This document shows, in pieces, positions 1 to 36,536 of a DNA stretch of 36,536 nt (positions are counted from its first letter, which is position 1; each line of letters opens with the position of its first letter). A model generated the notes under the pieces. That model was not told the DNA's origin and searched no databases. It worked only from the letters and a program-made list of their open reading frames with translations. Origin of the DNA: Rickettsia typhi (GTDB lineage Bacteria; Pseudomonadota; Alphaproteobacteria; Rickettsiales; JABSSG01); contig CAMCSP010000002.1 in NCBI GenBank assembly GCA_945877755.1, positions 1 to 36,536 on the forward strand. Direction: 5' to 3'. Position numbers and translations under genes: made by a program.

Positions 1-123
1 CCTTTCGATTTAGGCTCTTATAATTCGCTGTCTACGCTTCGCCCCCCTCGTTACCTTAGGACACGCAAGACTCGCTACACAGTGGTCTGGCTAACCTTCT
101 GTGACAGGACTTTCACCTGCAAG
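1..123. other. Unclassified GC-rich segment at the window edge. It stays in frame with the adjacent adaptor gene and takes the place of its N-terminal half. Possibly the end of an inserted multicopy element.
   Basis: Hand count gives 62 G+C in the first 120 nt (~52%) against an AT-rich background. The frame starting at nt 1 has no stop and runs into the MFP ORF, but the encoded PFDLGSYNSLSTLRPPRYLRTRKTRYTVVWLTFCDRTFTCK is not MFP-like. Confidence 0.3.
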
Positions 124-3918: not shown

Positions 3919-3925
3919 TCGAAGT

Positions 3926-5446
3926 CTAAGAAGGTTGCTTTTTTATTCTAAAACTAGTGTTTGCAGTTAAAGTTCGCTGCCCTGGTTTTTTAGTAGACCC
4001 AAAATAACCTGATTTTCTTTCACCACCAAACTCAGCCCTTGGTTCTGCGCCTCTATTAGGGAAACGGCTAGGCTTTCTATCACTACCGAATTCAGCTCTT
4101 GGTTCCGCACTTCTGCTACCAGCGAAACGACTAGGTTTTCTATCATTACTAAATTCAGCTCTTGGTTCCTCACTTCTGCTAACAGCAAAACGGCTAGGTT
4201 TTCTATCATTACTAAATTCAGCTCTTGGTTCCGCACTTCTGCTACCAGCAAAACGACTAGGCTTTCTGTTATTAACAGCACCAGAGTTTGGAGCACTTCT
4301 ATACATTTTCCTTGGAACACCTTTAGAACCTCTTCTTGGAGAAGATTTGTGAGCTAGTTCTGGTAAGCTTGGATCCATAAATTTTTGAATTGCATTCCAT
4401 TTATATTCATCTTGTGGAGAAATAAAGCTCATAGCACAACCTTCTGCACCAGCACGAGCTGTTCTGCCTACTCTATGAACGTAATCCTCAGGATCTTCAG
4501 GTAAATCATAATTTATAACATGTTGAATATGAGGAACATCTAGACCACGAGCTGCAACATCAGTTGCCACCATAATTCTACAACGGCCATTACGGAATGA
4601 ATTCATCACACGCTCACGTTTTTGCTGTCTTAGATCTCCATGAATTGCCGCAGCTTCATGACGCTCTTTAGATAATCTAGTAGCGATACGATCGGCATTA
4701 ATTTTTGTTTTCACAAATACTATTATTGAACCTTCTCGTTCTTGCAATTGAATCAAAAGATTTGCATATTTTTCCGTATCAATAACTTTTAGACTTTCTT
4801 GTTTTAATTTTAATACCGGAGATACTTCTGAACCAACAGAAACTCTTTGTGGAGCATTTAAATATTTTGCTGCTAATTGCTCAATCTTTGGTGGAAAAGT
4901 TGCAGAAAACATTAAGGTTTGCCTTTCCTTAGGAATTTGACTAATAATTTTTTCAATCTGGATACTGAAACCCATGTCAAACATTCTGTCTGTTTCATCT
5001 AAAACTAAAAATGCAATATTATTACATCTCAAAGTCTGACGCTCTAAATGATCAATCACTCTACCAGGAGTTCCAACTATAATTCTTGGCTTTGATTTAA
5101 GCTGGGTAAACTGCCTAGCAATTTGTTCACCACCTATTAAAAGAGCTATATTGAAATGTGGAAGATCTTTAATTAATTGCTTAATGTTAGTGGATATCTG
5201 CTGAGCCAACTCTCTGGTTGGTGTCAAAATAAGAGCTGATTTACTTGGATCAGCAAGTATTGCTGCAATAGTTGGTATGGAGAAAGCTAAGGTTTTACCT
5301 GTGCCTGTTTGTGCTGAGCCCATAACATCTTTACCCTCTAAAGCGAGAGGAATTGTTTGCGCTTGAATTGGTGTAGGTTCTTTAAAACCAATTCGGTCCA
5401 GAGCTTTAATAAGAACTGGAGATAGATCCATTTTATGGAAATTCAT
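3926..5446 (-). CDS. rhlE: DEAD-box ATP-dependent RNA helicase (RhlE-like) with a basic repeat-containing C-terminal tail
   Basis: Q motif FKEPTPIQAQ, motif I AQTGTGKT, Ia PTRELA, II DETD (variant), III SAT, V ATDVAARGLD, VI HRVGRTARAG. Start moved to MNFHKMDLSP (5446) because the longer ORF (to 5497) overlaps the cspA terminator hairpin. Confidence 0.9.
   Translation of the reverse strand: MNFHKMDLSPVLIKALDRIGFKEPTPIQAQTIPLALEGKDVMGSAQTGTGKTLAFSIPTIAAILADPSKSALILTPTRELAQQISTNIKQLIKDLPHFNIALLIGGEQIARQFTQLKSKPRIIVGTPGRVIDHLERQTLRCNNIAFLVLDETDRMFDMGFSIQIEKIISQIPKERQTLMFSATFPPKIEQLAAKYLNAPQRVSVGSEVSPVLKLKQESLKVIDTEKYANLLIQLQEREGSIIVFVKTKINADRIATRLSKERHEAAAIHGDLRQQKRERVMNSFRNGRCRIMVATDVAARGLDVPHIQHVINYDLPEDPEDYVHRVGRTARAGAEGCAMSFISPQDEYKWNAIQKFMDPSLPELAHKSSPRRGSKGVPRKMYRSAPNSGAVNNRKPSRFAGSRSAEPRAEFSNDRKPSRFAVSRSEEPRAEFSNDRKPSRFAGSRSAEPRAEFGSDRKPSRFPNRGAEPRAEFGGERKSGYFGSTKKPGQRTLTANTSFRIKKQPS
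4028..4276 (-). repeat. About four tandem copies of a 63-bp unit (one copy 60 bp) encoding the 21-aa repeat (S/G)NDRKPSRFAGSRSAEPRAEF in the helicase tail
   Basis: Units read directly at 4028-4087, 4088-4150, 4151-4213 and 4214-4276. Protein: NNRKPSRFAGSRSAEPRAEFSNDRKPSRFAVSRSEEPRAEFSNDRKPSRFAGSRSAEPRAEFGSDRKPSRFPNRGAEPRAEF. Confidence 0.9.
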
Positions 5447-5473
5447 AATTATTTCTATGTGTGCTAAAGGATG

Positions 5474-5512
5474 AAAAGGCCTAACTTTCCTAAGCATAAG
5501 CTAAGTTAGGCC
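5474..5512 (-). terminator. Rho-independent terminator downstream of cspA
   Basis: Perfect 10-bp stem ggcctaactt (5478-5487) / aagttaggcc (5503-5512) with a 15-nt loop. On the minus strand it is followed by TTTT (5474-5477). Confidence 0.6.
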
Positions 5513-5546
5513 TTAAATAAACGAAAGTACTATAAGTTAAGCGTAC

Positions 5547-5750
5547 TTAAAGAAGCTTAAGATTAGATGCAGACACTTTGCCTTTGTTAGTAACTAATTC
5601 GTAACTAACACGTTGGCCTTCATTTAAATTTGCAATACCTGCAGCTTCTAACGCACTGATGTGAACAAACACATCACTACTACCCGATTCTGGTTGAACA
5701 AAACCATAACCTTTAGTTGGGTTAAACCACTTTACAATACCTGTTTCCAT
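5547..5750 (-). CDS. cspA: Cold-shock protein, CspA family (67 aa)
   Basis: [15 protein letters not shown] (RNP1) and DVFVHISAL (RNP2). Strong SD AAGGAG 6-7 nt upstream of the ATG. Confidence 0.95.
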
Positions 5751-5995
5751 AAAAAAACTCCTTAAAACATTAATATAAATCTTATGATTTTCATAAGACC
5801 AAAAAATTTCATTCGGTAAACCGAAAGGTATTATAACGCTGAAGGAATTTTTTTAGCCTTAAAACCGAAAAAATAACTGATACCTCTTTCAAAGGAATTG
5901 CGAAAAATACTTAAATTTTCAAAGAAGAATATACATCATAAACTATTATAAAGCAAGTAGTAATTGAAATTATATTAAGAAAAGTCTAGTAAAGT

Positions 5996-6661
5996 CTAAT
6001 TTTTACTAACCTTAAATCTAAAAAAATATGGCTGTGAAGCTTTATAAGCTGCCTTCTTATAGTAACGAGTTAAAATTGCATAATCAAATGGTGTAAGCCA
6101 ATCATTTTGTGCGGTAACTTGCCAATGATAATGCAGCTGATTTAATAAATGAGAAAGAATCCATACAGCATATTCTTGATGGTCTGTAGCAACATTTAAA
6201 ATAGCTCCTGGCTTCATTTTATTATACAAAAATTCTAAGAATTCATTGTTAATTAACCGTCTTTTATGTTGTTTTTGCTTTGGCCAGGGATCAGGAAATA
6301 AAATGTAAACCGTATCAAAAATGTTATCCGGCAATTGGTTAAGTAATAATCGGACATCATCTTTCCATAATTTAATATTATCAATACCATGTTCGCTCAT
6401 TATCTTTAGAGTATTAGCTACACCATTGAGGTAAGGTTCACAGCCAATACATAAAGTATCTGGATTATTAATTGCAAATTCTGTGATAAAATCACCATTA
6501 CCAGATCCAACTTCTAAGTATAAATTGCGTGCCGAATTAACTAGTTCTTGTAAATTAACAATATGCTGTGGCAATACATATTTGATTATATCTTGACTTG
6601 ATTGACTAAGCCTCTTGCCTATTCTCCTACCAAAAGAATTGATTAATTTTTTCTCTGACAA
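5996..6661 (-). CDS. trmB: tRNA (guanine46-N7)-methyltransferase TrmB, TTG start
   Basis: LEVGSGNGDF SAM motif, GCEPY, and LFPDPWPKQKQHKRRL, the TrmB signature. Confidence 0.9.
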   Translation of the reverse strand: MSEKKLINSFGRRIGKRLSQSSQDIIKYVLPQHIVNLQELVNSARNLYLEVGSGNGDFITEFAINNPDTLCIGCEPYLNGVANTLKIMSEHGIDNIKLWKDDVRLLLNQLPDNIFDTVYILFPDPWPKQKQHKRRLINNEFLEFLYNKMKPGAILNVATDHQEYAVWILSHLLNQLHYHWQVTAQNDWLTPFDYAILTRYYKKAAYKASQPYFFRFKVSKN

Positions 6662-7306
6662 TTAAAGCCCCAAATTACGCTTCAATGCCTTACGAGCAAA
6701 TTCAAGACCTACTGTACCAATTGAATGACCAAGCATTGGCTCAATAATAGTTTCGACTGGAATATGAGCATACTCCAAAGCTGCTAACGCCATTTGCATT
6801 GCAGGCAAAGGAATAACATCATCTAGTGCACCATGAATTAAAGAAACAGGTGGCTTAGACTTTAACTCTGTTTGCAATAATTGAGGAGCAACTAACATAC
6901 CGGCAAAGCTAATAACCGCTCCTATTTTTTTAGTTCTTCTTAAAGCAGTATGCAATGCCAACATCGCCCCTTGCGAAAAACCAATTAAAGCAAGGTTCTC
7001 ATCAGATAAATTAAATTTCTGCAATTGATAATCAATAAACTGGTTAATATAAGGAGCAGCATTGTTAAGACCTTTTAACATGGATTGCTCAGAACGGTCA
7101 TTCAAACCAAACCATTGATAACCAAATGGTGCATTTTCAAATGGCAAAATACCATTTGGAGAAAAGAAATGAGTATCAGGAAAAGCCTTACTTAACTCTG
7201 CTGCTAAGCTAATAAGGTTCTCTCCATCAGCGCCATAACCGTGCAATAATATCACGATCGATGATAAAGTTTGTGTTTTAGATTTTATCTCTGGTCCAGA
7301 AATCAT
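6662..7306 (-). CDS. Phospholipase/carboxylesterase family alpha/beta hydrolase
   Basis: ILLHGYGADG, nucleophile elbow GFSQGA, GALDDVIP and GHSI are consistent with a Ser-Asp-His triad of the Abhydrolase_2 type. Confidence 0.8.
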   Translation of the reverse strand: MISGPEIKSKTQTLSSIVILLHGYGADGENLISLAAELSKAFPDTHFFSPNGILPFENAPFGYQWFGLNDRSEQSMLKGLNNAAPYINQFIDYQLQKFNLSDENLALIGFSQGAMLALHTALRRTKKIGAVISFAGMLVAPQLLQTELKSKPPVSLIHGALDDVIPLPAMQMALAALEYAHIPVETIIEPMLGHSIGTVGLEFARKALKRNLGL

Positions 7307-7312
7307 AAAATA

Positions 7313-8428
7313 TTACGCATGAAAATAAGAAAGAATTATTTCTTTATAAATTAATACTAGTTTTTGCAACTCTTCAATAGATATATGCTCATCAATTTTA
7401 TGGGCACTTTCATTAACCAGACCAAACTCAATAATGTTTGCATGATGATGGATAAATCTAGCATCAGAAGTACCACCAGTTGTACTTAATACAGGCTCTA
7501 TCCCAGTAACTTTTTTTACCGCATCTACCACTAATTTTTGCAACTGTGGAGCATTAGATAAAAATGACTCCGAAGAAGAACCAACCTTTAGAGTATAATT
7601 TTTAGTATGTCTTTTGCATATCTTATCAATCATATGCTCAAGAGAAATCGGATTATGTATGTTGTTAAATCTAATGTTAAAGCTAGCCTTTGCTTCTCCA
7701 GGAATAACATTAGTTGCTTTATTATCCACTGCAATATTGGTCACTTCTAAATTAGACTTAGGAAAATTTTCATTACCATCATCAAGGCTAAGTGATTGCA
7801 AATCAGAAAGAATTTTTACCAAAATTGTAATGGGATTGACAGCAATCTCATTATAGGCAACATGACCTTGTACGCCTTTTACATCAAGGTGAAAATTGAT
7901 AGACCCACGCCGACCTATTTTTGCCATATCTCCAACAAAAGAAGGATTAGTTGGTTCACCAACCAAGCAATCATCTATTTTAATCTCTTGTTCTTTTAAC
8001 CAATTCAATACTCTAGGAGTTCCGTTAGTAGCATCCTCCTCTTCATTACCACTAAGAAGCAGAGAAATCGTTCCCTTTATTTTATTTAGATCAATCATTG
8101 AAAGTGCAACAACAAAAGCAGCGATTGCCCCTTTCATATCAACCGCACCGCGCCCATAAAGAACACCATCTTTTACTTGTGGATCAAAAGGATTGTGTGA
8201 CCAGCCATCACCAGCAGGTACCACATCAAAATGCCCAGCAAAAGAAAAGTGACGCCCGCCCTGACCTTTGATAGAAAATAGATTAACTGTGTCTCCATAT
8301 GGCAAGACATGGTTGTGGAAGCCCATCTTTTCTAAGACAGAAGCCAGAAACAATGATGGCTCCTCTTGAGCAGGAGAAACAGATGGGATCCTAATTAAAT
8401 CCGAGGCTAAACTTATAACATCTAACAT
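7313..8428 (-). CDS. dapE: Succinyl-diaminopimelate desuccinylase (M20 peptidase)
   Basis: LIRIPSVSP, AGHFDVVPAGD...W..PF, GRGAVDMKG, GNEEE and FGL.N.SAHK..E follow the DapE/ArgE M20 metal-ligand pattern. Length is 371 aa. Confidence 0.85.
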   Translation of the reverse strand: MLDVISLASDLIRIPSVSPAQEEPSLFLASVLEKMGFHNHVLPYGDTVNLFSIKGQGGRHFSFAGHFDVVPAGDGWSHNPFDPQVKDGVLYGRGAVDMKGAIAAFVVALSMIDLNKIKGTISLLLSGNEEEDATNGTPRVLNWLKEQEIKIDDCLVGEPTNPSFVGDMAKIGRRGSINFHLDVKGVQGHVAYNEIAVNPITILVKILSDLQSLSLDDGNENFPKSNLEVTNIAVDNKATNVIPGEAKASFNIRFNNIHNPISLEHMIDKICKRHTKNYTLKVGSSSESFLSNAPQLQKLVVDAVKKVTGIEPVLSTTGGTSDARFIHHHANIIEFGLVNESAHKIDEHISIEELQKLVLIYKEIILSYFHA

Positions 8429-8697
8429 AGAACAATTTCCGTTGTGTCGGCTCCTGCAGTGAACTCAATAAAATACATAATTAATATCATAGGGCATAAA
8501 TTCCTCTTTAACCACCACTTCTTCTTTGTGGTCATCACTTAACTTAACATGCCAGTTAGGCTTGCATATTCTAATAAAGCCTCCCATGTCATAACATCTT
8601 AATTTAAAAATTTTTACTCATAAATATTAAAGAAGAAAAAGTTCAGTAGACTATATTTACTTAATAATTCAAGCAAAAATTCTAAATATTATTGGAT

Positions 8698-10260
8698 CTA
8701 TATCAAAACTGAGAAAATTTCAGCTAACACGAGATGCTTTTCATACGGCTTCCTAATACAACCGTCAATACCAATATTACGCGCTTTAGTTATATCTTTT
8801 TCATTAGCAACACCACTTTGCAGTATTATTTTTAAATGTGCTAAATATGAGTTCTTCCTAATATATTCCAATACTTCAAGACCATTTATATCTGGCATCA
8901 TCAGATCAAGTAGCACTAGATCTACAGACTGACCATGCTCTTGTAAATAATGCAAGCCCGCCTTACCACCAGAAGCTTTTATTAACGTATATGAAGTTTT
9001 ATACAAAAATAGCTCCATATTTAACAAGCAAGCATCTTCGTCGTCAATGATAAGTATGGTTGCAGGCTTAGTAATAACTTGATTGTCTTGTTTTTTATAA
9101 TCCTCAAATATCTTAGTTTCTTTAAGTTGATCAATTGGGATAACAAAGTTAAAAATCACACCCTCTGAAATATCATTTTCTGCCCATATTCTACCATGAT
9201 GACCTATAATAATCTCTTTACAAATAGCAAGACCAAGACCTGTACCACCTGTATTTGTTTTAGTATGTGTGCTTTGGGTAAATGGATCAAATATTACCTT
9301 AATCTCATCCTCAGGTACACTAATGCCGTAATTAGAAATAGAAAATTGTACTGCTTTGATTATCTTCCCTTGATCATTTGTAATATCAGTCTGAGTAGTG
9401 GTGATAGTAATAATACTATTATTTTGACTGAACTTAATAGCATTAGTAAAGAGATTACGTAAGACTTGTGTAATCCTGTCCTGATCAACAAAAGCAAAGA
9501 TTGGACCGGTATTATTAAATTCAAAATTACTCTTTTTTTCATTGATATAAAGGATTTTGCATTCCTCAATCATATCTTCGACAAGCAAGTTAAAATCTAT
9601 TTCTTGAAAGGCTAATAACATTTTCCTGGCAGTAAATTTTGACAAATCCAACAAATTTCCAACCAAAGATAGCAACCGTTTACTATTGTTTCTTACATGT
9701 TTTGCTATCTCAAGTCTTTTATCATCGGTAAACACTGCCCAATGTTCAACAAGACTGTCTGATAGACCTGTAACCCCTTGAATTGGAGTTCGTATCTCAT
9801 GGCTCATATTATTTAAAAACTCCGTCTTAAAAGCAAGAGCAAGTTGTAAATCTTTAGTACGCACGGCTACTTTTTGCTCAAGATCTGCATTTATTAACTT
9901 AATTTTATTGTTTGCTTCAAAAAGTTGTTTGCGAACCAAAATTTCCTTTTTAAATGCTGCTTTTACAATTTCAAAAGCCTCTACTAAATGTACACCTTCA
10001 CTACTGCTAACAGTAGGCATTTTAATATCCAAATTGCCATGTGAAAGTAGATGAACACTTTCTGAAAACAATATCATTGGATTAACTATTTTTATGCGGA
10101 AAAAATACAGAAGAACTAAGAAAGAGATAGCTACCAAAACTGTGGCTATCTGAGATATAACTAACTGCTTAAATTCTTCTTGTAAAAAATTTTTGTTTTG
10201 CCCTATTAATATAGTTATATGGATACATAATTTTATAATATCTATAAGTAATATTATCAT
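8698..10260 (-). CDS. Hybrid sensor histidine kinase, C-terminal portion (TM2, linker, HisKA, HATPase_c, receiver). Appears to be the 3' part of a frameshifted gene.
   Basis: H-box NNMSHEIRTPI, N-box NLFTNAIKFS, G2 GGTGLGLAICKEII. Receiver: ILIIDDE...LVLLDLMMPDINGLE...RKP. Overlaps the upstream sensor ORF in another frame. Confidence 0.85.
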   Translation of the reverse strand: MIILLIDIIKLCIHITILIGQNKNFLQEEFKQLVISQIATVLVAISFLVLLYFFRIKIVNPMILFSESVHLLSHGNLDIKMPTVSSSEGVHLVEAFEIVKAAFKKEILVRKQLFEANNKIKLINADLEQKVAVRTKDLQLALAFKTEFLNNMSHEIRTPIQGVTGLSDSLVEHWAVFTDDKRLEIAKHVRNNSKRLLSLVGNLLDLSKFTARKMLLAFQEIDFNLLVEDMIEECKILYINEKKSNFEFNNTGPIFAFVDQDRITQVLRNLFTNAIKFSQNNSIITITTTQTDITNDQGKIIKAVQFSISNYGISVPEDEIKVIFDPFTQSTHTKTNTGGTGLGLAICKEIIIGHHGRIWAENDISEGVIFNFVIPIDQLKETKIFEDYKKQDNQVITKPATILIIDDEDACLLNMELFLYKTSYTLIKASGGKAGLHYLQEHGQSVDLVLLDLMMPDINGLEVLEYIRKNSYLAHLKIILQSGVANEKDITKARNIGIDGCIRKPYEKHLVLAEIFSVLI

Positions 10261-11038
10261 GGGTTATTTCAGCGCTTAACTTCCCTTGATTATTCTTTAT
10301 AAAATTGTTGTTTTTTAGTAGTTTAGTAATATTACTCAAAGAATCTTTAATATGTGTTGAACTAGTAATTAGTTTTAAATCTTCAGTTAAAACCATAAAT
10401 TCACTTGTATCAGAGCGTAAAGAACGTTCAATTTTTTGTGTAAGTTTTTCGATGCTAAACCCAATAGAGACAATACCGACAAATCTATTATTTTTATCCG
10501 TAATACCATAACCGCCTGGAATAATATACTCACCACTAACAATGCCTAAGTCTGGATAAGCAAGATGAAGAAACCATGGTTTAGTACGTGCTGTTATTAC
10601 CCATGGCCTTTTTTTACTATCAACCTTAAGTGGGGCATAAGTAACGCCTGCAGCAGCAGCTATAATATAGTTATCTGGGTTTATAAATTCAAATAAAGTC
10701 CATGGAAAGATATCGTCTTTAATTTCACTTATATCAACTTTATTTTGTAATATCAATGCCACAGACTCAGCATCGTATTTGCCAGAAGATGCTATCACGT
10801 TCCCCACAAATCTCATGAAAATTGAAGCGTAGGTAAAAGAATCTTCTAACACTTCCTTTATTCTATTTGCCTCTAAGGCGTATTCGTAGTCTTTTTCTGT
10901 TTCCAAATTGTTATAAGAAAACCATAATAACCATGCTAAAGAAGAAATAATAATAGCTGAGACAATAGAAGCAAAATAAAAATACTCTCTGGATATAGAG
11001 AGATTCTTATGTTTATAATAATAACTTTTACGCTTCAT
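10169..11038 (-). CDS. N-terminal sensor portion (TM1 plus periplasmic domain) of the same histidine kinase, in a different frame
   Basis: TM helix FASIVSAIIISSLAWLLWF followed by a ~230-aa extracytoplasmic domain. It ends inside a 92-nt overlap with ORF 8698..10260, just upstream of the next TM segment. Confidence 0.6.
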   Translation of the reverse strand: MKRKSYYYKHKNLSISREYFYFASIVSAIIISSLAWLLWFSYNNLETEKDYEYALEANRIKEVLEDSFTYASIFMRFVGNVIASSGKYDAESVALILQNKVDISEIKDDIFPWTLFEFINPDNYIIAAAAGVTYAPLKVDSKKRPWVITARTKPWFLHLAYPDLGIVSGEYIIPGGYGITDKNNRFVGIVSIGFSIEKLTQKIERSLRSDTSEFMVLTEDLKLITSSTHIKDSLSNITKLLKNNNFIKNNQGKLSAEITHDNITYRYYKIMYPYNYINRAKQKFFTRRI

Positions 11039-11251
11039 TCATCATCGCCTAACTACTTTAAAGACAAAAAAAGTAAAATATCAACATAGTAATACCAAAT
11101 ATTTACTTAATTGTCTTTATTAAACTTAATTTGACATTGCTGCGTTGCAACAATATTAAATAATAGTAGTATATAATTAATATTAATAAATCCTGGGTAA
11201 TTCTTTTTAATTTGTGGTGTATTGCGGAGTACAGAGCTCGCTTTTTATACT

Positions 11252-11506
11252 TCAATTACGTTTTACTCCTTGAGCTGCAAGAAATATGGCATCCTTCTTG
11301 CTCAGCTTCTTATTTACTTTATCCCTAGAGTCTATTAAGGCATTATCTTTTAATGAATTTTGATTAGAGAAAAAACTGTTTTGAGTATTTATTTCTCCAT
11401 GTAATTTCAATAACATTACTCTGGCCTTTCGATATTTGCATCCTATTTCAAAGATAATGATCAAAACTAAAATGAAATTGAGGAAGCAATAACAAAACTT
11501 ATACAT
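11252..11506 (-). CDS. Hypothetical small protein with an N-terminal hydrophobic segment
   Basis: ORF track only, with no recognisable motif. The hydrophobic N-terminus FLNFILVLIIIFEIGC could be a signal or anchor. Confidence 0.2.
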   Translation of the reverse strand: MYKFCYCFLNFILVLIIIFEIGCKYRKARVMLLKLHGEINTQNSFFSNQNSLKDNALIDSRDKVNKKLSKKDAIFLAAQGVKRN

Positions 11507-11607
11507 ACAAAGTGTTCGAGCATAATAAAGTATTGTTTTTAATCAGTTACATCCATACTAGTAGACCCGGATAGCAACAAAAATAAATAAAAAAGGAAAA
11601 TTCTAAG

Positions 11608-11638
11608 TAGAGTTGTAACCTTGAGGCTAATTGGTCGG
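11608..11638. repeat. Direct repeat copy A, matching the 3' end plus 3' flank of tRNA-Pro
   Basis: gtagagttgtaaccttgagGctaAttggtcgg versus gtagagttgtaaccttgagTctaCttggtcgg at 17351-17382 (two mismatches). An additional shared taaataaaaaa block lies just upstream of both copies. Confidence 0.8.
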
Positions 11639-11778
11639 CTAGTTAGCCTAGTCATTATTGAGGTTTTTATCGCCCTTACCGTTTTGGTTTAATTTTCCGC
11701 GCTCGAAGAGTTTATGAGACATTTTTCAACCTATATTATTATGATTTTACTAGGGATTTATGGTAATAGCCTCTATAG

Positions 11779-12222
11779 TCACTCCTTATTTTTTGTATTG
11801 TCTTCAGGTAAATAAATGGCAGTATTTTCATACCAATCTTGACGCATAGGTGCAAAAATATCAACATTAATTGTATCCTCCAATACCTCAAATTGATGAG
11901 GAACATTGGGAGGTATTACCAGCACTCCTCCAGCCTTAACAATAAACTCTTTGCCTTGAGAAAGCACTTTAACCGAGCCCTTAGTAATCCAAGTAATTTG
12001 CTCATTCACATGATGATGCCAAGGTACAATAGCCCCTTTTTTAAAAGTCCATTTTACGAGCATTGATTGCCCACCGTAAATATATTGTCTGGAAATCTTA
12101 TCTGTTAAAACTTCTGGGGGCATATTGTCTAAATCATAATAGACCGGCAGAGCTTGATAGTGCATGGACAGGCTGTTTTCTGTTGAATCCTGATTTTTCG
12201 AATTAGAAGGCTGCTTTTTCAT
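11779..12222 (-). CDS. Cupin domain protein (147 aa)
   Basis: WHHHVNEQITWITKGSVKV...VLVIPPNVPHQFE is a two-motif cupin_2 metal-binding pattern. Confidence 0.8.
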   Translation of the reverse strand: MKKQPSNSKNQDSTENSLSMHYQALPVYYDLDNMPPEVLTDKISRQYIYGGQSMLVKWTFKKGAIVPWHHHVNEQITWITKGSVKVLSQGKEFIVKAGGVLVIPPNVPHQFEVLEDTINVDIFAPMRQDWYENTAIYLPEDNTKNKE

Positions 12223-13172
12223 AAAATTTTCCTAATATATTTTTGATTTCATATCTATACTGTATACTAGAATTATTAATATATAGTAAAAATTCTGTAT
12301 TGGCATCTTCAAGGTCAAGCTTTGTTAAACTCTCGACATTCTGAATTGGGATCAGTTAGGTGGCAACTAGGCCAAGAATGACATTGACTGAAGAGCCACC
12401 GGTTACTAAAAAATTCTTCTTCCTTGCCGAAGTCATAATCAAGAGTTAGAATGATGCTGAATTCTAGATCTTTATCTGGGAATGAAAAATTTAGATTGCC
12501 TCCAACCTCAGTCTCGACCACCTATAATTCCTGGTGAATAATTCTAGTAATGGCCCACAGTAAAACGGTGTATATTCTAGGAATGATATGGTTCACCTCC
12601 GTCTCCAGATGATGACTCATGGGACAAGCCTGGAAGTTGGCCTGGAGATGGACCTGGAATTTGTTATATATCAACTAAAAGTCAGAAAGTATATGATCAG
12701 CCGACAGGCCCAGAACAACCTATTGATCCAATAATATCTAAATATATAGATAAAGAATTATCTATATATTGCTGATATGATGGGTTGCAATAGCGGTGGT
12801 TATATTCTTAATCAAGCATTTTCAAACGATTCTAGGTTAGTATTCATAAGGTAAGATTGATGAGCAAGATAGTATCAACTAAATTTTGCATTATTTCTTT
12901 ACATTTTTAGTATAACTGATGCATAATAGAATAAATTTATTTTGAGTTATTATAGTTTTCATATATAATAAAGATGAAAACAACTACCCAAATTTTATTT
13001 ATTATTTATATATTTTGAGCAATGTTTTATAAATATTATCTATACACTCCCCTAGAAACTGCAGTGTCTGGCCTTGTCTTATACGCAATGAGTTTATACA
13101 GATTTACTCACATAAGCCCTTTACAAATTACTAATATAAGTAGATTTCCCGAAATGCAGTATCATAACAGCA

Positions 13173-13430
13173 ATGCTCTTGATCATAAGATGGGTTGCTA
13201 TTGTGGTGTATCTATATGGTTTTTTTAAGGGAGCAGTTGTAGGTGCGGCTTCTGCTGGTGCAATTATTGGAGCAGAATATTATGCAACAGGTCAAGATCT
13301 TTTCAAACTACCAGAAACAATAGAAGAAAACTTCCAAGACAGTGCCATTGCAGCAGTTTCAGTAGCTACCATTGTGGGAAGCACAATAATGCTAAGCGCA
13401 GTATATCTCGATTCAAATACATCCCCGTAG
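13173..13430 (+). CDS. Hypothetical small membrane protein with a glycine-zipper-like segment
   Basis: ORF track. GAVVGAASAGAIIGA is a small-residue repeat, and a C-terminal TM is present (AAVSVATIVGSTIMLSAV). No homology recognised; the start is uncertain. Confidence 0.3.
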   Translation: MLLIIRWVAIVVYLYGFFKGAVVGAASAGAIIGAEYYATGQDLFKLPETIEENFQDSAIAAVSVATIVGSTIMLSAVYLDSNTSP

Positions 13431-13450
13431 CGAATCTACCAACCGGAATA

Positions 13451-13693
13451 ATGTTTCCCGAGGCAGAAATATTTCGCCCTCATGAAAACACTTTGATTAC
13501 TTATGCTAAAATCGGGGTTTGTTTTGCTATGGCAAGTGCTATTAGTTCAGTTCCTGCTATTATCATTGGCACCATTATTGCAGGTATAGAAAGCAATAAT
13601 CTCTCCTTTACCCACAATGATCAGCAAAACATTACAAACAGCAATAGTAATACTACTATTCTTGGAGAAATATATTACACTACGGAATCGTAA
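13451..13693 (+). CDS. Hypothetical small single-pass membrane protein
   Basis: ORF track. TM segment FAMASAISSVPAIIIGTIIAGI followed by an N/S/T-rich tail. Confidence 0.3.
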   Translation: MFPEAEIFRPHENTLITYAKIGVCFAMASAISSVPAIIIGTIIAGIESNNLSFTHNDQQNITNSNSNTTILGEIYYTTES

Positions 13694-13727
13694 TGTCATT
13701 CATTGCCATGTGTAAAAATAGGTAAAA

Positions 13728-13898
13728 ATGTTAGGAAATATTTTTCACGTTTTAGGAACTAATTTGCCTGGGGACTTTCAACACATGCCTAGTACTTCTA
13801 TGGCTATTGTAGCAACAATAGCTATGGCAGGATTAACTTATTTAGTTAATACTTGGCGAACTAATCCTGAAAATAATAATATATATCCCATCAATTAA
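13728..13898 (+). CDS. Hypothetical small membrane protein (56 aa, below the ORF-track cutoff). Its 3' end runs into the IS remnant.
   Basis: Hand translation: MLGNIFHVLGTNLPGDFQHMPSTSMAIVATIAMAGLTYLVNTWRTNPENNNIYPIN*. The last ~5 codons lie in sequence shared with the IS6 copy. Confidence 0.25.
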   Translation: MLGNIFHVLGTNLPGDFQHMPSTSMAIVATIAMAGLTYLVNTWRTNPENNNIYPIN

Positions 13899-14216
13899 AG
13901 AAGAGACAAGCTAAAAGAGGAGATATGTAGCACCTTGATGAATAATGCTTAGTAATGAATGATAAGCGACATTGGTTATGGAGAGCGATTGACCAAGATG
14001 GTTATGAGCTTGATATATTGATGCAACTCAGGAGAAATACTAAAGCAGCTATAAGATTTTTCAGAAAATTGTTAAAAGAGCTACAATATGTACCAAGAGT
14101 AATCGTTACTGATAGACTAAGAAGCTATATGGACAGCAATTAGTTTATTAAATATTGCTCCCTGAAATACACAAAATAGCATAATTTACCACCATTCCTA
14201 ACAACTTGACAATGCC
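13885..14216 (+). mobile_element. IS6-family insertion sequence remnant, 5'-truncated and carrying a ~250-bp internal deletion
   Basis: Near-identical to parts of the 15443-16253 copy. Encodes HLDE*CLVMNDKRHWLWRAIDQDGYELDILMQLRRNTKAAIRFFRKLLKELQYVPRVIVTDRLRSY, then jumps to the last codons. Terminal repeat ggcattgtcaagttg (reverse complement) ends at 14216. Confidence 0.8.
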
Positions 14217-14435
14217 AGAAATACATCTGATTTAATAATATCCTTAAGGTTCACTAAAATTTACAGGTTAGAAATGTGATTAATTGCATAAATGATTGAA
14301 TTGAAAAAATACAATCTTGGGTTGCATATTTAATATGCTATAACAGTATTTGTATTATGTTCAAGATAATTATTAGCTTATATATAGTGCTAAACTAGAA
14401 TCATACAGTAAAATTACAAGCGTTATATTCATTGA

Positions 14436-15290
14436 TTATTGTAGCGTACCGTCACGATAATCACTAAATGCTTGACGGATTTCAAAATCTGTATTCATAA
14501 CAAATGGCCCTTCTCCAACAATTGGTTCATTAATTGGTTCGCCGGACATGAATAGAATTTTGGAATCTTTTTCAGCTTTCAAAACAATCTCATCTCCTTC
14601 ATTCTGATCAAATAATGCTAGCTCTGATGAAACAATAGTTTCTCCCTCTATTTGAACCTTACCGTTAAGTACTAAAAGAGAGGCATTAAAACCTTTATCA
14701 ACAGGTAAATTAAGTGAGGCTCCGGCTTTAAGACGTATATCGTAGAGATGTATAGGCGTAAAAGTTTTTGCTGCACCCTTTAAATTATTAAAGCTGCCTG
14801 CAATAATACGCATTGAACTACCTTCTTGTTCCACTACCGGTATGTTTTTATTTAAGATTCCTTGATAGCGCGGCTCAGACATTTTATTTTTAGCAGGAAG
14901 ATTTACCCAAAGCTGTATCATTTCCATTCTACCGCCCTTCTTACTAAATTCAATGCTATGTTTTTCTTCATGTAGAACACCATGGGCTGCTGTCATCCAT
15001 TGTACGTCACCAGGGCCAATTTTACCTGAATTGCCGGCTGTATCTTTATGTTCTACCTCACCCGCATAAACAATAGTCACAGTTTCAAAACCTCGATGTG
15101 GATGTTGCCCTACACCACGCGGAATATCAGAAGGTGAAAATTCAGACGGTGCAGCATAATCTAATAGTAGAAACGGACTAATATTATGTCCGTCAATCCC
15201 GTAATAAAACATGGTACTCACATAAAAACCATCACCGACCCAATGTCTTTCTTTTTCACGCCTAATTATCTGAATCTTTCTGCTTTTCAT
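14436..15290 (-). CDS. Pirin family protein (284 aa)
   Basis: GVGQHPHRGFETVTIVYAGEVEHKD and WMTAAHGVLHEE are pirin/cupin motifs. Start set at MKSRKIQ (15290), which has GAGGA 5 nt upstream, rather than the extended ORF start at 15362. Confidence 0.9.
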   Translation of the reverse strand: MKSRKIQIIRREKERHWVGDGFYVSTMFYYGIDGHNISPFLLLDYAAPSEFSPSDIPRGVGQHPHRGFETVTIVYAGEVEHKDTAGNSGKIGPGDVQWMTAAHGVLHEEKHSIEFSKKGGRMEMIQLWVNLPAKNKMSEPRYQGILNKNIPVVEQEGSSMRIIAGSFNNLKGAAKTFTPIHLYDIRLKAGASLNLPVDKGFNASLLVLNGKVQIEGETIVSSELALFDQNEGDEIVLKAEKDSKILFMSGEPINEPIVGEGPFVMNTDFEIRQAFSDYRDGTLQ

Positions 15291-15442
15291 AATGTCCTCA
15301 ATTATTAACCTGCTATATATATTTATTGATAATATGCTAAATATAATAAATATTCTTGTCAACTATCATATCTATACAAAATTATCTACTGAAGGGGCTT
15401 CACCAAAATGTTATGATTTAACTTAACAATATGTACCAAGGG

Positions 15443-16253
15443 GGTATTGTCAAGTTGTTAGGAATGATAGTAAATTATGCTATTTTGTGTATTTCAGGGA
15501 GCAATATTTAATAAACTAATTGCTGTCCATATCGTAAATACAGCTTTTATTTTTTCTTTTCTTTCTTTTGCCCTTAACTTGTATAAACCTACTTTAAAAT
15601 AATTCTTAATTATACCAAATGCTGATAAAAATTGCTGCGCTTGAGGTGGCGATTTAAATCTCCGCATTTGCTTCTCTTTTAATCTGGTGGGCTGATGAGC
15701 TGCTTCAATATAATTATTTAGCCCTTTGTGGTTTCTATGCTCAACTTTCTTTAGTATTTTCTTCTTTGCTGAACTATAGCTTCTTAGTCTATCAATAACG
15801 ATTACTCTTGGTACATATTGTAGCTCTTTTAACAATTTTCTGAAAAATCTTATAGCTGCTTTAGTATTTCTCCTGGGTTGCTTCAATATATCAAGCTCAT
15901 AACCATCTTGGTCAATCGCTCTCCATAACCAATGTCACTTATCATTCATTACTATGCATTATTCATCAAGGTGCTACCTATCTCCTCTTTTAGCTTGCCT
16001 ATTCTTTAATTGATGGGATGTAATGCACCAAAATTCTTTACCCAGCAACGAACTGTCTCATGGCTCACTTCTCTACCACGTTGCATCAGCAACATTTCTA
16101 TATCTCTAAAACTAGCTGTTAATCGGTAATAAACTGCTTATTACTTCAATTGGAAATCTATAACCCTTATATCTTTTTATCCTCTTAACTCTTATCATTG
16201 TAGTAAGACATTTTAATAACTTATCTACCATTACTCAAGAACTTGACAATACC
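15443..16253 (-). mobile_element. IS6-family insertion sequence, full length (811 bp) but with a degenerate transposase
   Basis: Terminal inverted repeats GGTATTGTCAAGTT at 15443-15456 and (reverse complement) 16240-16253, resembling the IS26 IR GGCACTGTTGCAAA. The 8-bp flanks (accaaggg / cacatagg) are not a target duplication. Confidence 0.85.
15494..15886 (-). pseudogene. IS6-family DDE transposase, C-terminal open segment. The N-terminal ~110 codons upstream are broken by stops and frameshifts.
   Basis: VIVIDRLRSY...NNYIEAAHQPTRLKEKQMRRFKSPPQAQQFLS parallels the IS6100/IS26 motif NNRAENSHQPTRRRERQMQRFKS. Hand translation upstream gives ...HLDE*CIVMNDK*HWLWRAID. Confidence 0.85.
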
Positions 16254-16364
16254 CACATAGGTTATAATCATAACAGAAAAAACTTTTCTCAGTAGGATAG
16301 CTTTAGATAAAAATAAAAACGCAGAACCTTATGCACCAATAGAAATTACGCAGCTATATTTGGC

Positions 16365-16952
16365 TTATGATAATAATTTTTCTATTCTTCGATCTGGTAT
16401 AATCCACATTAAAATCACTGCAAAATAAATTATCTGAGATATTTTCTCATAATAAAAAGCAGTAGGTATGGCAATTAAAAATAAAATCAAAGACATTTTG
16501 CCTTTAAAATCTTTTCCTATAGCATTCGATAAAACTGAAGTTGGGTTATATTTTAATATTGCAAATTGTAAAATACGATAAGCAGCAGCTGTAAATAATA
16601 GCTCTATCCCATATAAAGCAGTTGGTAAAGGTTCAAAATGATTTTCTCCCATCCAATCTGTAGTAAAAGGAATTAAGGAAACCCAGAAAAGAAAATGTAA
16701 ATTTGCAAGTAATATTTGTCCATTAACATGAGTAACAGTATGAACCATGTGATGATGATTACTCCAATAAGTACCAATGTAAAAAAAGCTTATCACATAA
16801 CTCAAAAAAATTGGTGCCATTGAGCAAAGATGTTCAAAACTAGATCCATGAGGTGCTTTGAGCTCTAAAACCATTATGGTAATAGTCACTGCTAACACTC
16901 CATCACTAAAAGCTTCAAGCCTAGCTTTGCTAATTCCTTTGTTTTCTTTCAT
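16365..16952 (-). CDS. TMEM175-like (DUF1211) putative potassium channel, 6-TM, 195 aa
   Basis: TM1 signature RLEAFSDGVLAVTITIMVLEL (RxxxFSD motif), with six hydrophobic segments. Confidence 0.8.
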   Translation of the reverse strand: MKENKGISKARLEAFSDGVLAVTITIMVLELKAPHGSSFEHLCSMAPIFLSYVISFFYIGTYWSNHHHMVHTVTHVNGQILLANLHFLFWVSLIPFTTDWMGENHFEPLPTALYGIELLFTAAAYRILQFAILKYNPTSVLSNAIGKDFKGKMSLILFLIAIPTAFYYEKISQIIYFAVILMWIIPDRRIEKLLS

Positions 16953-17350
16953 TTTTATATTTTATAATAAATAAATTTTTTTAATTTTCTTTCTTTTACT
17001 ATCAAGAATAATCACTTTATGGCTTTAAAGCTCTCTTTATTCCTGAGAATATAAAGTTTTTATGCCCTTTTCTAGCTAAGAAAAAGACTTAATCTAACTT
17101 TTATATTCAAGTATACTAAAAGACAATTATTCTGTAGTCAAATTTTTTGCTGTAACAAAAAAGCCTGCTATAAAAAATATGGTATGCACAAAATACTTTG
17201 AAATCTAAGCTTAATTTGTCTGGAAACTTATATTAGAAATTTAGAATTAAAATAACATTAAAAAGAAGACCTGCTTTGACCATTCGTAGTCTAATAAATT
17301 TACGTACGTACAGTAACAACCAAGTAACGACGAGAGTAAATAAAAAAATT

Positions 17351-17375
17351 GTAGAGTTGTAACCTTGAGTCTACT

Positions 17376-17382
<7 letters not shown>
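17351..17382. repeat. Direct repeat copy B, covering the last 7 nt of tRNA-Pro (including CCA) plus 25 nt of its 3' flank
   Basis: See copy A at 11608-11638. The match ends inside the tRNA acceptor 3' strand. Confidence 0.8.
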
Positions 17383-17452
<70 letters not shown>

Positions 17453-17650
17453 AAATATAAGATTTTTTATATTATTCTTTTGCGCAGAATAATCAATAAG
17501 TTTTTTATATTTAGAGTCTTCTCATAAATTAAAATAAAATAAAATTGCTTTTTTACAGATATTTTCTACTTCTAGTTTGAAATTAATAATAAAAATACAT
17601 TATTCCAGCTTTTTATATAATTTTATTGCATTTATTACTTGAACACATCA

Positions 17651-17714
17651 TTATTTCCATGTAATACCACTTAATCCCATATTAACCCATTATTAACCAT
17701 TTTAGTGTTATAAT
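17651..17714 (+). promoter_or_regulatory. Putative mraZ/dcw promoter: five 10-bp-phased CCAT/CCAC repeats (candidate MraZ operator) followed by an extended -10 TGTTATAAT
   Basis: Decamers ttatttCCAT|gtaataCCAC|ttaatcCCAT|attaacCCAT|tattaaCCAT at 17651-17700. TATAAT lies at 17709-17714, 35 nt upstream of the mraZ ATG. Confidence 0.4.
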
Positions 17715-17748
17715 GTGAATAGAAGTAAAGATAGATTGAAAATTAAAG

Positions 17749-33298: not shown

Positions 33299-33775
33299 AT
33301 GCAGTTAAAAAACTTCATTATGAGGATAGCTTTACAAATTCAGAATCTCATCGATTCTTTAACTACCAAAAATATTTTGGCAGTAAGGTGTATAGTTGTT
33401 AAAAATGACAAGTTTTTACTGGTTAAACACACTTATATGCCTGGATGGTATAATATTGGTGGGGGCGTTGACATGGGAGAAACTCCTTTGCAAGCTGTGA
33501 TCCGTGAACTTCAAGAAGAAGCAGGCATCACTTGCTTAACTCCCCCTAAATTATCCAATATCTATCTTTATACAGATAAGAAAAAAAGCAATCAACATTA
33601 TATAACTCTTTATATATGCGAAGATTTCCAGGAAGCAGATTATATCTGCCCCATAGAAATTGCTCAAAAGAAATGGTTTAAGCTCAAAGACTTACCAGAA
33701 GATACCACCCCTGCTACCAAAGCTAGAATTTTAGAATATTTAGGCAAGATAGAAAGTAGTGACACGTGGAAGTAA
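33299..33775 (+). CDS. NUDIX hydrolase
   Basis: Nudix box GGGVDMGETPLQAVIRELQEEAGI (GX5EX7REUXEEXGU). The start codon is uncertain; an internal Met lies at codon 8. Confidence 0.8.
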   Translation: MQLKNFIMRIALQIQNLIDSLTTKNILAVRCIVVKNDKFLLVKHTYMPGWYNIGGGVDMGETPLQAVIRELQEEAGITCLTPPKLSNIYLYTDKKKSNQHYITLYICEDFQEADYICPIEIAQKKWFKLKDLPEDTTPATKARILEYLGKIESSDTWK

Positions 33776-33859: not shown

Positions 33860-36268
33860 ATGGTAAGTGTTATGAAAAATAAACAACTCAATCTATACCC
33901 TCTAGTCCCTCTAAGAGATATAGTATTATTCCCAAAAATGGTTTCTCCTTTAATAGTTGGCAGAACTAAGTCAATTAAAGCGATTGAGGAAGTTAGCGCG
34001 AGCAATTCACCGATATTATTTGTTACTCAGAAAAGTGCTACAGTCACAGATCCTAAACCAGAAGAGTTACATAAAGTTGGGGTAATTGCAAAAGTATTGC
34101 AATTACTAAAGCTACAAGATGGTACGCTAAAAGTATTAGTCGAAGCAACTGAACGAGTAAAAATAGAAAATATAATCAGCACCAAAAATCATTTGGAAGC
34201 AATTGTATCTAATTTTGAAGAAAAAGCTGGAGATAATATCAAAACTACTGCTCTAATGCGTTCAGTAATCGCGCAATTTCACGAATATGCAAAATTAAAT
34301 ACCAAAACCAATTCTGAAGTAATGCAAGTATTAGAGAAGATCAATGACCCAGGTCATTTTGCTGATATAATCACTACAAATTTATTAATAAGAATCGAAG
34401 ATAAACAAGAAGTGTTGGAAATATCCAATATTAAAAAAAGACTAGAAAAACTCCTCGAATTAATAGGAACTGAAATCAGTATTCTCACAACAGAACAAAA
34501 GATTCGCACCAATGTTAAAAAACAAATGGATAAAACTCATAAAGAATTCTTCTTAAATGAGCAGTTAAAAGCCATACATAAGGAACTTAACGAAGGAGAC
34601 GATGGTAAAAGCGAATTAGCAGAGCTCGAAAAGAAAATTAGTAAAACTAAAATGAGCAAAGAAGCTTTTAAAAAAGCTATTTCCGAACTTCGTAAACTCA
34701 AAATGATGAATGCAATGTCAGCTGAGGCTAGTGTAATTCGTAATTACCTTGAATATTTAGTTTCGTTACCATGGAATAAATATACCAAAATAAAGCATGA
34801 TATTTCTGCTGCCCAACAAATTCTAGATCATGACCATTATGGCTTAGATAAGGTTAAAGAAAGAATTATTGAGTATTTAACCGTACAAAAACGTACCTCA
34901 TCTAATAAAGGGCCTATTTTATGCTTAGTTGGCCCTCCAGGAGTCGGTAAAACCTCACTAGCAAAATCAATTGCAAAAGCTACCGGTAGAAATTATATAA
35001 GATTCTCTCTTGGGGGAGTACGAGATGAGGCAGAAATTAGAGGCCATAGAAGAACGTACGTTGGAGCAATGCCAGGAAAAATAATAAGCTTACTCAAAAA
35101 AGCTGAATCAGCAAACTCCTTAATTCTTTTGGATGAAATTGATAAAATGAGTTCTGATTTCCGAGGAGACCCAGGCTCAGCCTTATTAGAAGTGCTAGAT
35201 CCTGAACAAAATAATAAATTTATAGATCATTATATAGAAGTAGAATTCGATTTATCAAAAGTATTATTCATTGCTACTGCAAACTCATTGAACCTTCCAA
35301 GGCCTCTGTTAGACAGGATGGAAATCATAAGGCTATCTGGTTATACAGAAGAAGAAAAAACTCAGATTGCAATACAATATTTAGTAAAGAAAATTTGTAA
35401 AGAGCATCATCTCTCGAAAAAAGAGTTCTCTATTACTAATGAGTCAATAAGAGATGTAATAAGGTACTACACAAGAGAATCTGGAGTACGTAATCTTGAG
35501 CGGGAAATTGCTAAACTTGCTAGAAAGGCGGTTCGCTTAATTGAACAAAAAAATATTAAGTCACTAAATATCACTTCTGAAAATCTTAGTACGTATGCTG
35601 GTGTAAGGAAGTTTGATTTTGGCCAATCAGAAAGTGAAAATCAAGTTGGTGTTACTACAGGTCTTGCTTATACAGAGGTTGGAGGAGATCTATTAGCCAT
35701 TGAGGCAGTATTATTGCCAGGCAAAGGTTTAATTAAAACTACCGGTAAGCTTGGTGAAGTGATGCAAGAATCTGCCCAAACTGCCTTTAGCTACTTCAAA
35801 TCTACCTCTTTAAAATATGGGATAATCCCACCTCAATACTCTAGGAAAGACATTCATCTGCACGTTCCTGAGGGTGCTACACCTAAAGATGGTCCATCAG
35901 CAGGAGTTGCTATGTTTACCTCCATCGTCTCAGTAATGACCGGCATCACTGTTGATAAAACTATTGCTATGACAGGAGAAATTACTTTAAGAGGAAGAGT
36001 GCTTCCTATAGGTGGACTCAAAGAAAAATTACTTGCAGCTCTAAGAGGAGGCATAAAAACCGTACTAATACCTGCACAAAACATGAAAGATCTTGAAGAT
36101 ATGCCAAAAAATATCACTGAAAATATAGAGATTGTTCCCATAAAAACTGCAGAAGAAGCTATAAATCGTGCCCTAACTGCAACATTTTTGCCAGTAGAGT
36201 GGTCTGAAATTAACAAAATAGAGCCAATTATAGCAAAAAATGATGAAAATGATGTAGTAACGCATTGA
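33860..36268 (+). CDS. lon: ATP-dependent Lon protease
   Basis: N-terminus YPLVPLRDIVLFP, Walker A GPPGVGKTS, Walker B LDEIDK, and a protease domain with the catalytic KDGPSAG Ser and a downstream Lys. The start may be Met5 (33872). Confidence 0.97.
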   Translation: MVSVMKNKQLNLYPLVPLRDIVLFPKMVSPLIVGRTKSIKAIEEVSASNSPILFVTQKSATVTDPKPEELHKVGVIAKVLQLLKLQDGTLKVLVEATERVKIENIISTKNHLEAIVSNFEEKAGDNIKTTALMRSVIAQFHEYAKLNTKTNSEVMQVLEKINDPGHFADIITTNLLIRIEDKQEVLEISNIKKRLEKLLELIGTEISILTTEQKIRTNVKKQMDKTHKEFFLNEQLKAIHKELNEGDDGKSELAELEKKISKTKMSKEAFKKAISELRKLKMMNAMSAEASVIRNYLEYLVSLPWNKYTKIKHDISAAQQILDHDHYGLDKVKERIIEYLTVQKRTSSNKGPILCLVGPPGVGKTSLAKSIAKATGRNYIRFSLGGVRDEAEIRGHRRTYVGAMPGKIISLLKKAESANSLILLDEIDKMSSDFRGDPGSALLEVLDPEQNNKFIDHYIEVEFDLSKVLFIATANSLNLPRPLLDRMEIIRLSGYTEEEKTQIAIQYLVKKICKEHHLSKKEFSITNESIRDVIRYYTRESGVRNLEREIAKLARKAVRLIEQKNIKSLNITSENLSTYAGVRKFDFGQSESENQVGVTTGLAYTEVGGDLLAIEAVLLPGKGLIKTTGKLGEVMQESAQTAFSYFKSTSLKYGIIPPQYSRKDIHLHVPEGATPKDGPSAGVAMFTSIVSVMTGITVDKTIAMTGEITLRGRVLPIGGLKEKLLAALRGGIKTVLIPAQNMKDLEDMPKNITENIEIVPIKTAEEAINRALTATFLPVEWSEINKIEPIIAKNDENDVVTH

Positions 36269-36359: not shown

Positions 36360-36389
36360 GATCGTTAATAATTTAATAAGGACCATAAA

Positions 36390-36406
36390 ATGAACAAAAA
36401 TGAACT
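36390..36406 (+). CDS. hupB: First 17 nt (MNKNEL...) of an HU-like DNA-binding protein gene, interrupted
   Basis: RBS AAGGA 8 nt upstream. ATG AAC AAA AAT GAA CT encodes MNKNE(L), the typical HU N-terminus, at the position hupB occupies after lon in alphaproteobacteria. The downstream frame (CDMRLQNRAVFHHYEKTILITE*) is not HU-like. Confidence 0.45.
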
Positions 36407-36536
36407 GTGCGACATGAGGTTGCAGAATAGGGCTGTTTTCCACCATTATGAGAAAACCATTCTTATCACAGAATGAATCTAGGATGCTGAATCGAGTAGC
36501 GCATCTGACAATGTAATGAAGAGCGACATTACAAGC
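36407..36536 (+). mobile_element. Candidate 5' end of a group II intron (domain I start), truncated by the window edge
   Basis: Begins GTGCGAC, matching the group II 5' consensus GUGYG, exactly where HU-like coding stops. ...GCAGAATAGGGCTGTT resembles the Ll.LtrB start GTGCGCCCAGATAGGGTGTT. GC-richer than the flanks, with a hairpin TGTAATG-N7-CATTACA near the end. Confidence 0.45.

Follow-up and report, generated by a model that had tools for sequence, protein, structure and literature searches.

Evidence for a group II intron interrupting codon 6 of an alphaproteobacterial hupB gene

Most bacterial group II introns reside outside housekeeping genes (PMC4424553, PMC12584367, PMC6003770). Exceptions in host genes include the intron of recA in Geobacillus kaustophilus, introns at the stop codon of groEL in E. 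coli and Azotobacter, and those in cyanobacterial housekeeping genes (PMC4424553; PMC12584367). Introns that are spliced from bacterial host genes are known, and they lower the expression of the gene that hosts them (PMC4424553, PMC6003770). Ll.LtrB, which interrupts the Lactococcus lactis relaxase gene ltrB, decreases both mRNA and protein of its host gene even with splicing (PMC6003770). Why conserved host genes of bacteria are nearly always free of group II introns is debated, with expression cost and the coupling between translation and transcription as the reasons under discussion. Here, we analyzed a 36,536-nucleotide stretch of DNA from an uncultured, AT-rich alphaproteobacterium (the window), at the right end of which the nucleoid-protein gene hupB breaks off within its sixth codon. 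As in the recA, groEL and cyanobacterial cases, the intron proposed here lies in sense orientation within a conserved chromosomal gene, the expression of which would need splicing. It differs from them in the host gene, hupB, and in lying 17 nt after the start codon. Specialization to the insertion site is described for the groEL intron of E. coli (PMC12584367), whereas the hupB insertion is found in one strain only, and the published host-gene introns mostly belong to the CL/ML or IIB1 lineages, whereas the hupB intron has been placed in no class.

The gene order at the locus is tig-clpP-clpX-nudix-lon-hupB. It is anchored upstream by lon (33860-36268, plus strand), an ORF of 802 aa, and both the Lon protein and the gene order are identical on contigs of sister strains. 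The ATG of hupB follows the lon stop codon after 121 nt and is preceded at a distance of 6 nt by an AAGGA ribosome-binding site (36379-36383, plus strand), which is the same in the sister contigs. The portion of hupB contained in the window, exon 1 (ATG AAC AAA AAT GAA CT; 36390-36406, plus strand), consists of codons 1-5, encoding MNKNE, and two bases of codon 6 (Leu6). Its 17 nt are identical to the start of the uninterrupted 90-aa hupB (L001-L004, L015, L016, L018-L020), and its final ~13 nt would be IBS2/IBS1. From 36407 onward, the sequence reads GTGCGACATGAGG / GTGCGACATGAGGTTGCAGAATAGGGCTGTT / GTGCGACATGAGGTTGCAGAATAGGGCTG, up to the window end at 36536, with a modest rise in G+C from 0.31-0.33 before the junction to 0.41 after it. 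Translation across the junction yields a 28-aa ORF (36390-36476, plus strand), composed of MNKNEL and 22 intron-encoded residues and closed by TGA at 36474-36476; this ORF overlaps the first 70 nt of the intron, including two of the three conserved hairpins described below. A preliminary description of this DNA had located the lon end, the AAGGA motif, the MNKNE(L) start and the switch at 36407, and had noted 22 non-HU codons followed by a stop as well as an increase in G+C; all of these were confirmed in the sequence. A 72-aa minus-strand ORF spanning the junction retrieved no record on look-up, and a second HU gene is absent from the 36.5-kb window, the part of the genome covered here.

Uninterrupted alleles of hupB were identified in sister strains, in which at least nine contigs harbor the 90-aa gene. 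Several metagenome contigs in public collections encode a Lon protein identical to that of the window and keep the tig-clpP-clpX-nudix-lon order, and on sister contigs the 90-aa gene likewise begins 121 nt after lon. Alignment of the window with four sister contigs via blastn showed stretches of up to 12.5 kb at 99.3-99.97% identity, and all four alignments terminate at exactly 36406. Intact hupB is also present on L015, L016, L018 (with a scaffold gap), L019 and L020 and in one ENA record found via RecG; downstream of hupB, the sisters harbor a tRNA, recG, a CTP-transferase-like gene and gyrA. The empty site in these strains reads ...AATGAACT|CGTAACAAAAATGTCC..., i.e. ...GAACT|CGTAAC..., and the sister gene starts ATGAACAAAAATGAACT|CGTAACAAAAATGTCC. 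The insertion thus splits codon 6 (CT|C), separating nt 17 of hupB from nt 18, and the 5' side of the insertion is exact against the intron-less alleles. The intact sister HU matches Pfam PF00216 (Bac_DNA_binding) over its full length (88 bits, residues 1-90). The earlier recognition of MNKNEL as an HU start was therefore correct, as the same 17 nt open this 90-aa Bac_DNA_binding gene after lon in the sisters. Judged by these alignments, the break in hupB is far beyond chance.

The insertion was absent from every other contig of the species examined (at least nine). A search of the protein database with HU revealed neither an exon-2-only nor an intron-extended product, and the longer HU matches in this search are upstream start extensions of intact genes only. 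A contig that starts in the intron and enters hupB exon 2 was found neither by the protein search nor by five contig look-ups via RecG; the RecG-linked contigs shown either carry intact hupB or stop short of the insertion site. Codons 7-16 of hupB display clustered substitutions in one sister (L019:2759-3031), with six changes in 30 nt, and both Logan contig L004 and the NCBI MAG GCA_037129345.1 break inside hupB, at +75 and +49, respectively, 3' of the intron site. The hupB breaks and substitutions in L004, L017 and L019 (nt 18-75) probably reflect strain microdiversity rather than the intron.

Further features were observed elsewhere in the window. The NUDIX gene (33299-33775) encodes 158 aa in the window and in most sisters, 79 aa in L001 (9441-9680) and 149 aa in L003, which suggests frameshift or start variation. 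A DEAD-box helicase gene (3926-5497, minus strand) contains a 63-nt tandem repeat in 4.1 copies (4013-4267) that encodes a repeated ...DRKPSRFAGSRSAEPRAEF... tail; depending on the sister strain, the helicase measures 523, 585 or 607 aa, and the repeat number therefore varies within the species. A 248-nt inverted repeat with 96% identity between its arms (13882-14129 and 15775-16022) corresponds to transposase fragments of the IS6/IS240 DDE type. Between its arms lies a pirin gene; sister strains have the same arrangement, and it looks like a decayed composite transposon.

The inserted DNA starts with GTGCG (36407-36411), in line with the GUGYG consensus of group II introns, directly where host homology ends at 36406. 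A search of Rfam at gathering thresholds returned no match in the inserted 130 nt. A permissive search yielded RF02012 (group-II-D1D4-7) at 27.2 bits, compared with a gathering threshold of 34, in a match that is 3'-truncated by the window end; full-length relatives score 75-82 bits on the same model. Comparison with plasmids via blastn identified sequences of 72-76% identity to intron nt 1-116 in Shewanella, Vibrio and Pseudoalteromonas; for the introns of Vibrio and Shewanella plasmids, the identity is 74-76%. These matches always begin at the G of GTGCG, and the annotated full-length plasmid copies contain a group II intron RT/maturase gene (ltrA) ~570 nt from the intron start. A covariance model was built from 36 non-redundant 5' ends of relatives, with the window left out. 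Applied to both strands of the window, it produced a single match at 36407-36529 on the plus strand (95.3 bits, E 2e-25), with model position 1 coinciding with 36407.

Covariation was analyzed in a MAFFT alignment of the window and nine plasmid copies. Three domain I hairpins are located on the plus strand at 36434-36457, 36458-36475 and 36482-36506 (alignment columns 29-51, 52-69 and 76-100), in which 98.5% of cells are paired, compared with 29-38% when the partners were slid. Double changes occur in half of the 20 hairpin pairs (10/20), a number reached by none of 500 shuffles, and the window sequence itself supplies seven of these compensatory changes. Folded alone, the 130 nt are not unusually stable (z = -0.72); the structural evidence hence derives from covariation and not from folding energy. 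As the hairpins covary in the family, the ribozyme of this lineage is under selection, and the inserted 130 nt retain every conserved position and stem of the family. The preliminary description had pointed at a hairpin TGTAATG/CATTACA with a loop of 7 nt. This hairpin is present, but its loop comprises 8 nt (TGTAATG-N8-CATTACA), and it is not conserved in the intron family, where ATGTAAYGAAG is invariant and a different hairpin comes next. Empty sites in sister strains, homology starting at nt 1, the 95-bit model match and compensatory changes together bear out the proposal that a group II intron interrupts hupB. We are highly confident that 36407-36536 (plus strand, sense to hupB) is the 5' end of such an intron inserted in hupB, comprising its first 130 nt with GUGCG and the start of domain I, and ending with the window.

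To describe the intron family, 49 metagenome relatives were recovered with a degenerate two-block pattern. The nearest among 58 relatives, L056, is 78% identical, and the window copy is thus an outlier. Exact scans of GTDB genomes, JGI metagenomes and IMG/VR revealed no copies of the first 29 nt or the last 27 nt of the intron. Relatives encode a 490-aa RT/maturase; their IEP contains RVT_N, RVT_1 and GIIM, without a Pfam endonuclease-domain match, and in the introns the 34-nt domain V has an AGC triad and EBS1 is located at ~+300. The V. campbellii copy yields full D1D4-7 and Intron_gpII (domain V/VI) Rfam matches, spans ~2155 nt and ends ...CGAC. L056 (398-~1181; JGI Ga0181566_10229224) is an ORF-less mini-intron of ~784 nt with good domains V and VI and AT-rich flanks, and its 78% identity to the hupB intron extends over the first 115 nt. 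In L070, an intron is inserted inside domain I of another copy (twintron), and L009 harbors a second intron 5' end 1490 nt past the first.

The target sites of the family were compared via 54 distinct 5' flanks (plasmid L005-L013, metagenome L031-L079), which display the motif ...TAAC-N8-TTTGGGGC| before GTGCG. Sub-lineages have flanks ending TGTCC, TGCCC or GGGAC. In the V. campbellii copy, a 6-nt EBS1 (GCCCCA, at ~+300) is able to base-pair with TGGGGC. Introns of the IIC and IIC-attC classes insert behind a terminator or an attC hairpin and have a short EBS1 and no EBS2. The idea of a IIC-attC intron had arisen from the TAAC motif; this class has the target consensus TTGT/T (PMC7923331). 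The target consensus of the family, its 6-nt EBS1 and the AGC triad in its 34-nt domain V rule out a IIC/IIC-attC assignment. The insertion site in hupB lies inside a coding region. Whereas the homing site is common to the relatives, the hupB site bears no resemblance to it: the flank AACAAAAATGAACT| scores at background on the family flank profile (rank 28270 of 73362 positions, z = 0.28). Sequence available for EBS pairing on the exon 1 side is AAAAATGAACT, and the first base after the junction is C. Either the exon-binding sequences differ in this diverged lineage or the insertion arose by ectopic retrotransposition. For introns lacking an endonuclease, priming from replication-fork DNA is expected. 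As the IEP of the relatives is devoid of a Pfam endonuclease domain, such priming is predicted here. The GC skew in the window follows gene orientation and is uninformative on replication direction or a fork-priming bias. A paper on endonuclease-less IEPs makes no mention of the hosts of this family.

The intron is placed on the coding strand of hupB and would therefore be transcribed within the hupB pre-mRNA. In the reading that we prefer, the element would have been inserted recently, in one strain, by reverse splicing and reverse transcription between hupB nt 17 and 18. A complete ribozyme would be excised and ATGAACAAAAATGAACT rejoined to CGTAACAAAAATG..., and the rejoined CT|C would restore the 90-aa HU of the sister strains exactly. 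Unspliced RNA would give rise to the 28-aa peptide only. Synthesis of HU in this strain would then be splicing-dependent and probably reduced. Taken as a whole, a recent sense insertion in hupB together with a complete intron that splices and restores HU appears somewhat better than evenly supported. We infer that the intron is complete and competent to splice, that exon 2 is intact, that expression is lowered and that the element moved by the pathway given. Splicing is favored by the sense orientation, by an undecayed ribozyme start maintained by selection and by a probable identical copy elsewhere in the genome. Against it, the closest relative, L056, is ORF-less, and a maturase may therefore be missing from the hupB intron; moreover, translation initiated at the hupB start codon would proceed for 70 nt into domain I, which should hinder its folding. 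The tolerance of another knock-out by the same strain (see below) and the departure of the hupB site from the conserved homing site of the family also count against it. The insertion is seen in one strain only, and the allele may be rare and deleterious. We consider it rather unlikely that HU is expressed only via splicing of a multicopy, possibly ORF-less intron positioned 17 nt after the start of a single-copy gene. If true, the arrangement would be like that of organellar intron-hosting genes, with polymorphism within the species and a possible splicing-dependent throttle on HU levels.

Alternatively, as the preliminary description had also considered, the insertion could be a knock-out, with an intron that is truncated, ORF-less without a usable maturase, rearranged through recombination between intron copies, or misfolded when translated; we regard this as a serious possibility, short of an even chance. 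The hupB locus would then yield no HU and the strain would survive without it or via a paralog, an outcome that we put forward tentatively. HU is dispensable in several bacteria, which counts for a knock-out. So does a second group II intron in the same strain, the 5' end of which occupies the left end of the window (148 to 1, minus strand; Rfam D1D4-6, 62 bits). It interrupts an RND membrane-fusion (HlyD-type) gene (82-843, plus strand) in antisense orientation and cannot be spliced from that mRNA. Sister contigs L023, L025 and L026 have the uninterrupted gene, encoding 387 aa, and their alignments stop at window position 149. The antisense intron certainly inactivates it, and the strain therefore tolerates knock-outs. 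The IEP of the second intron is 28% identical to the IEPs of the hupB-intron family, making help in trans unlikely; one strain thus harbors two unrelated group II introns in chromosomal genes, one sense and one antisense. The ORF-less state of L056, the extension of the hupB ORF by 70 nt into the intron and the lack of the interrupted allele on other contigs of the species point in the same direction. On the other hand, sense orientation is expected of a tolerated insertion in a needed gene, and the visible 130 nt are undecayed, with all conserved positions and stems of the family kept. The lack of a second HU gene in the 36.5-kb window also argues against a knock-out, but says little on the whole genome.

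An assembly chimera, in which an intron repeat was joined to the hupB start of a strain whose real hupB is intact, is improbable. It would fit a metagenome assembly, a contig end that lies within a probable repeat, 130 nt beyond the junction, and the presence of sister strains with intact hupB in related samples. However, the switch occurs exactly at intron nt 1 (model position 1), as a real insertion predicts and unlike a mis-join, which would be expected inside a shared k-mer; hupB and the intron share none. A second assembly of the strain, contig k141_290165 of ENA ERZ27280245 (38,297 nt), aligns to window 1-18426 (18.4 kb) without a mismatch and with a single 2-nt gap. This contig runs 1767 nt further through the second intron (D1D4-6 at 127 bits, a 444-aa RT gene), with domain V at the last bases of the contig; the full copy of this intron occupies L024:18281-20195. 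The other end of our contig has an equally exact intron junction, which is confirmed by this second assembly. By length arithmetic, not by sequence, we infer that k141_290165 stops at its right end ~8 nt before the window does, after ~120 nt of the hupB intron. Two assemblies stopping in the hupB intron fit a repeated element without proving its copy number, and a multicopy state, as suggested in the preliminary description, is plausible; introns at both ends explain the contig breaks. The least probable reading, to which we attach hardly any weight, takes the inserted DNA for another element such as an IS or prophage end, or MNKNEL for a chance ORF unrelated to HU: although only 130 nt are visible and GTGCG alone would be weak evidence, homology and covariation place these 130 nt in group II domain I, which excludes an IS or prophage end and disposes of the IS-type element that the preliminary description had held open, and the HU start opens an intact gene in the sisters.

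In its visible part, the hupB element is an ordinary group II intron, and the event is rare but known. A full-text literature search for a natural group II intron in hupB returned engineered or incidental mentions only, and an intron in this gene, 17 nt after the start codon, appears to be unreported. The hupB case would represent a natural, recent and strain-polymorphic insertion at the start of a highly expressed nucleoid-protein gene, for which the intron-less sister strains offer natural controls to study in vivo splicing, cost and persistence of such insertions.

With respect to sequence, the counterparts of the hupB intron are the plasmid introns of Vibrio, Shewanella and Pseudoalteromonas, exemplified by the copy on V. 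campbellii pVIBHAR (NC_009777.1, 84737-86891; ltrA WP_021018383.1), which is matched by RF02012. They share with it the GTGCGAC start, the three domain I hairpins and GACAAUGUAAYGAAG, which is invariant in the plasmid introns. The hupB copy resides in an AT-rich alphaproteobacterial chromosome, whereas theirs are in gammaproteobacterial plasmids. RmInt1 of Sinorhizobium meliloti (PMC4615759) likewise has an alphaproteobacterial host and is multicopy, which is plausible for the hupB intron; its IEP is endonuclease-less, and the IEPs of the relatives of the hupB intron similarly lack a Pfam endonuclease domain. RmInt1 homes into an insertion sequence, whereas the hupB intron is located in a host gene, and the likeness described here is one of features. 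Like Ll.LtrB, the hupB intron interrupts an ORF, the product of which would need splicing, and lowered expression is predicted for hupB. In contrast, Ll.LtrB is a IIA intron with an endonuclease-containing IEP on a conjugative element, whereas the hupB intron is located in a chromosomal gene for a nucleoid protein.
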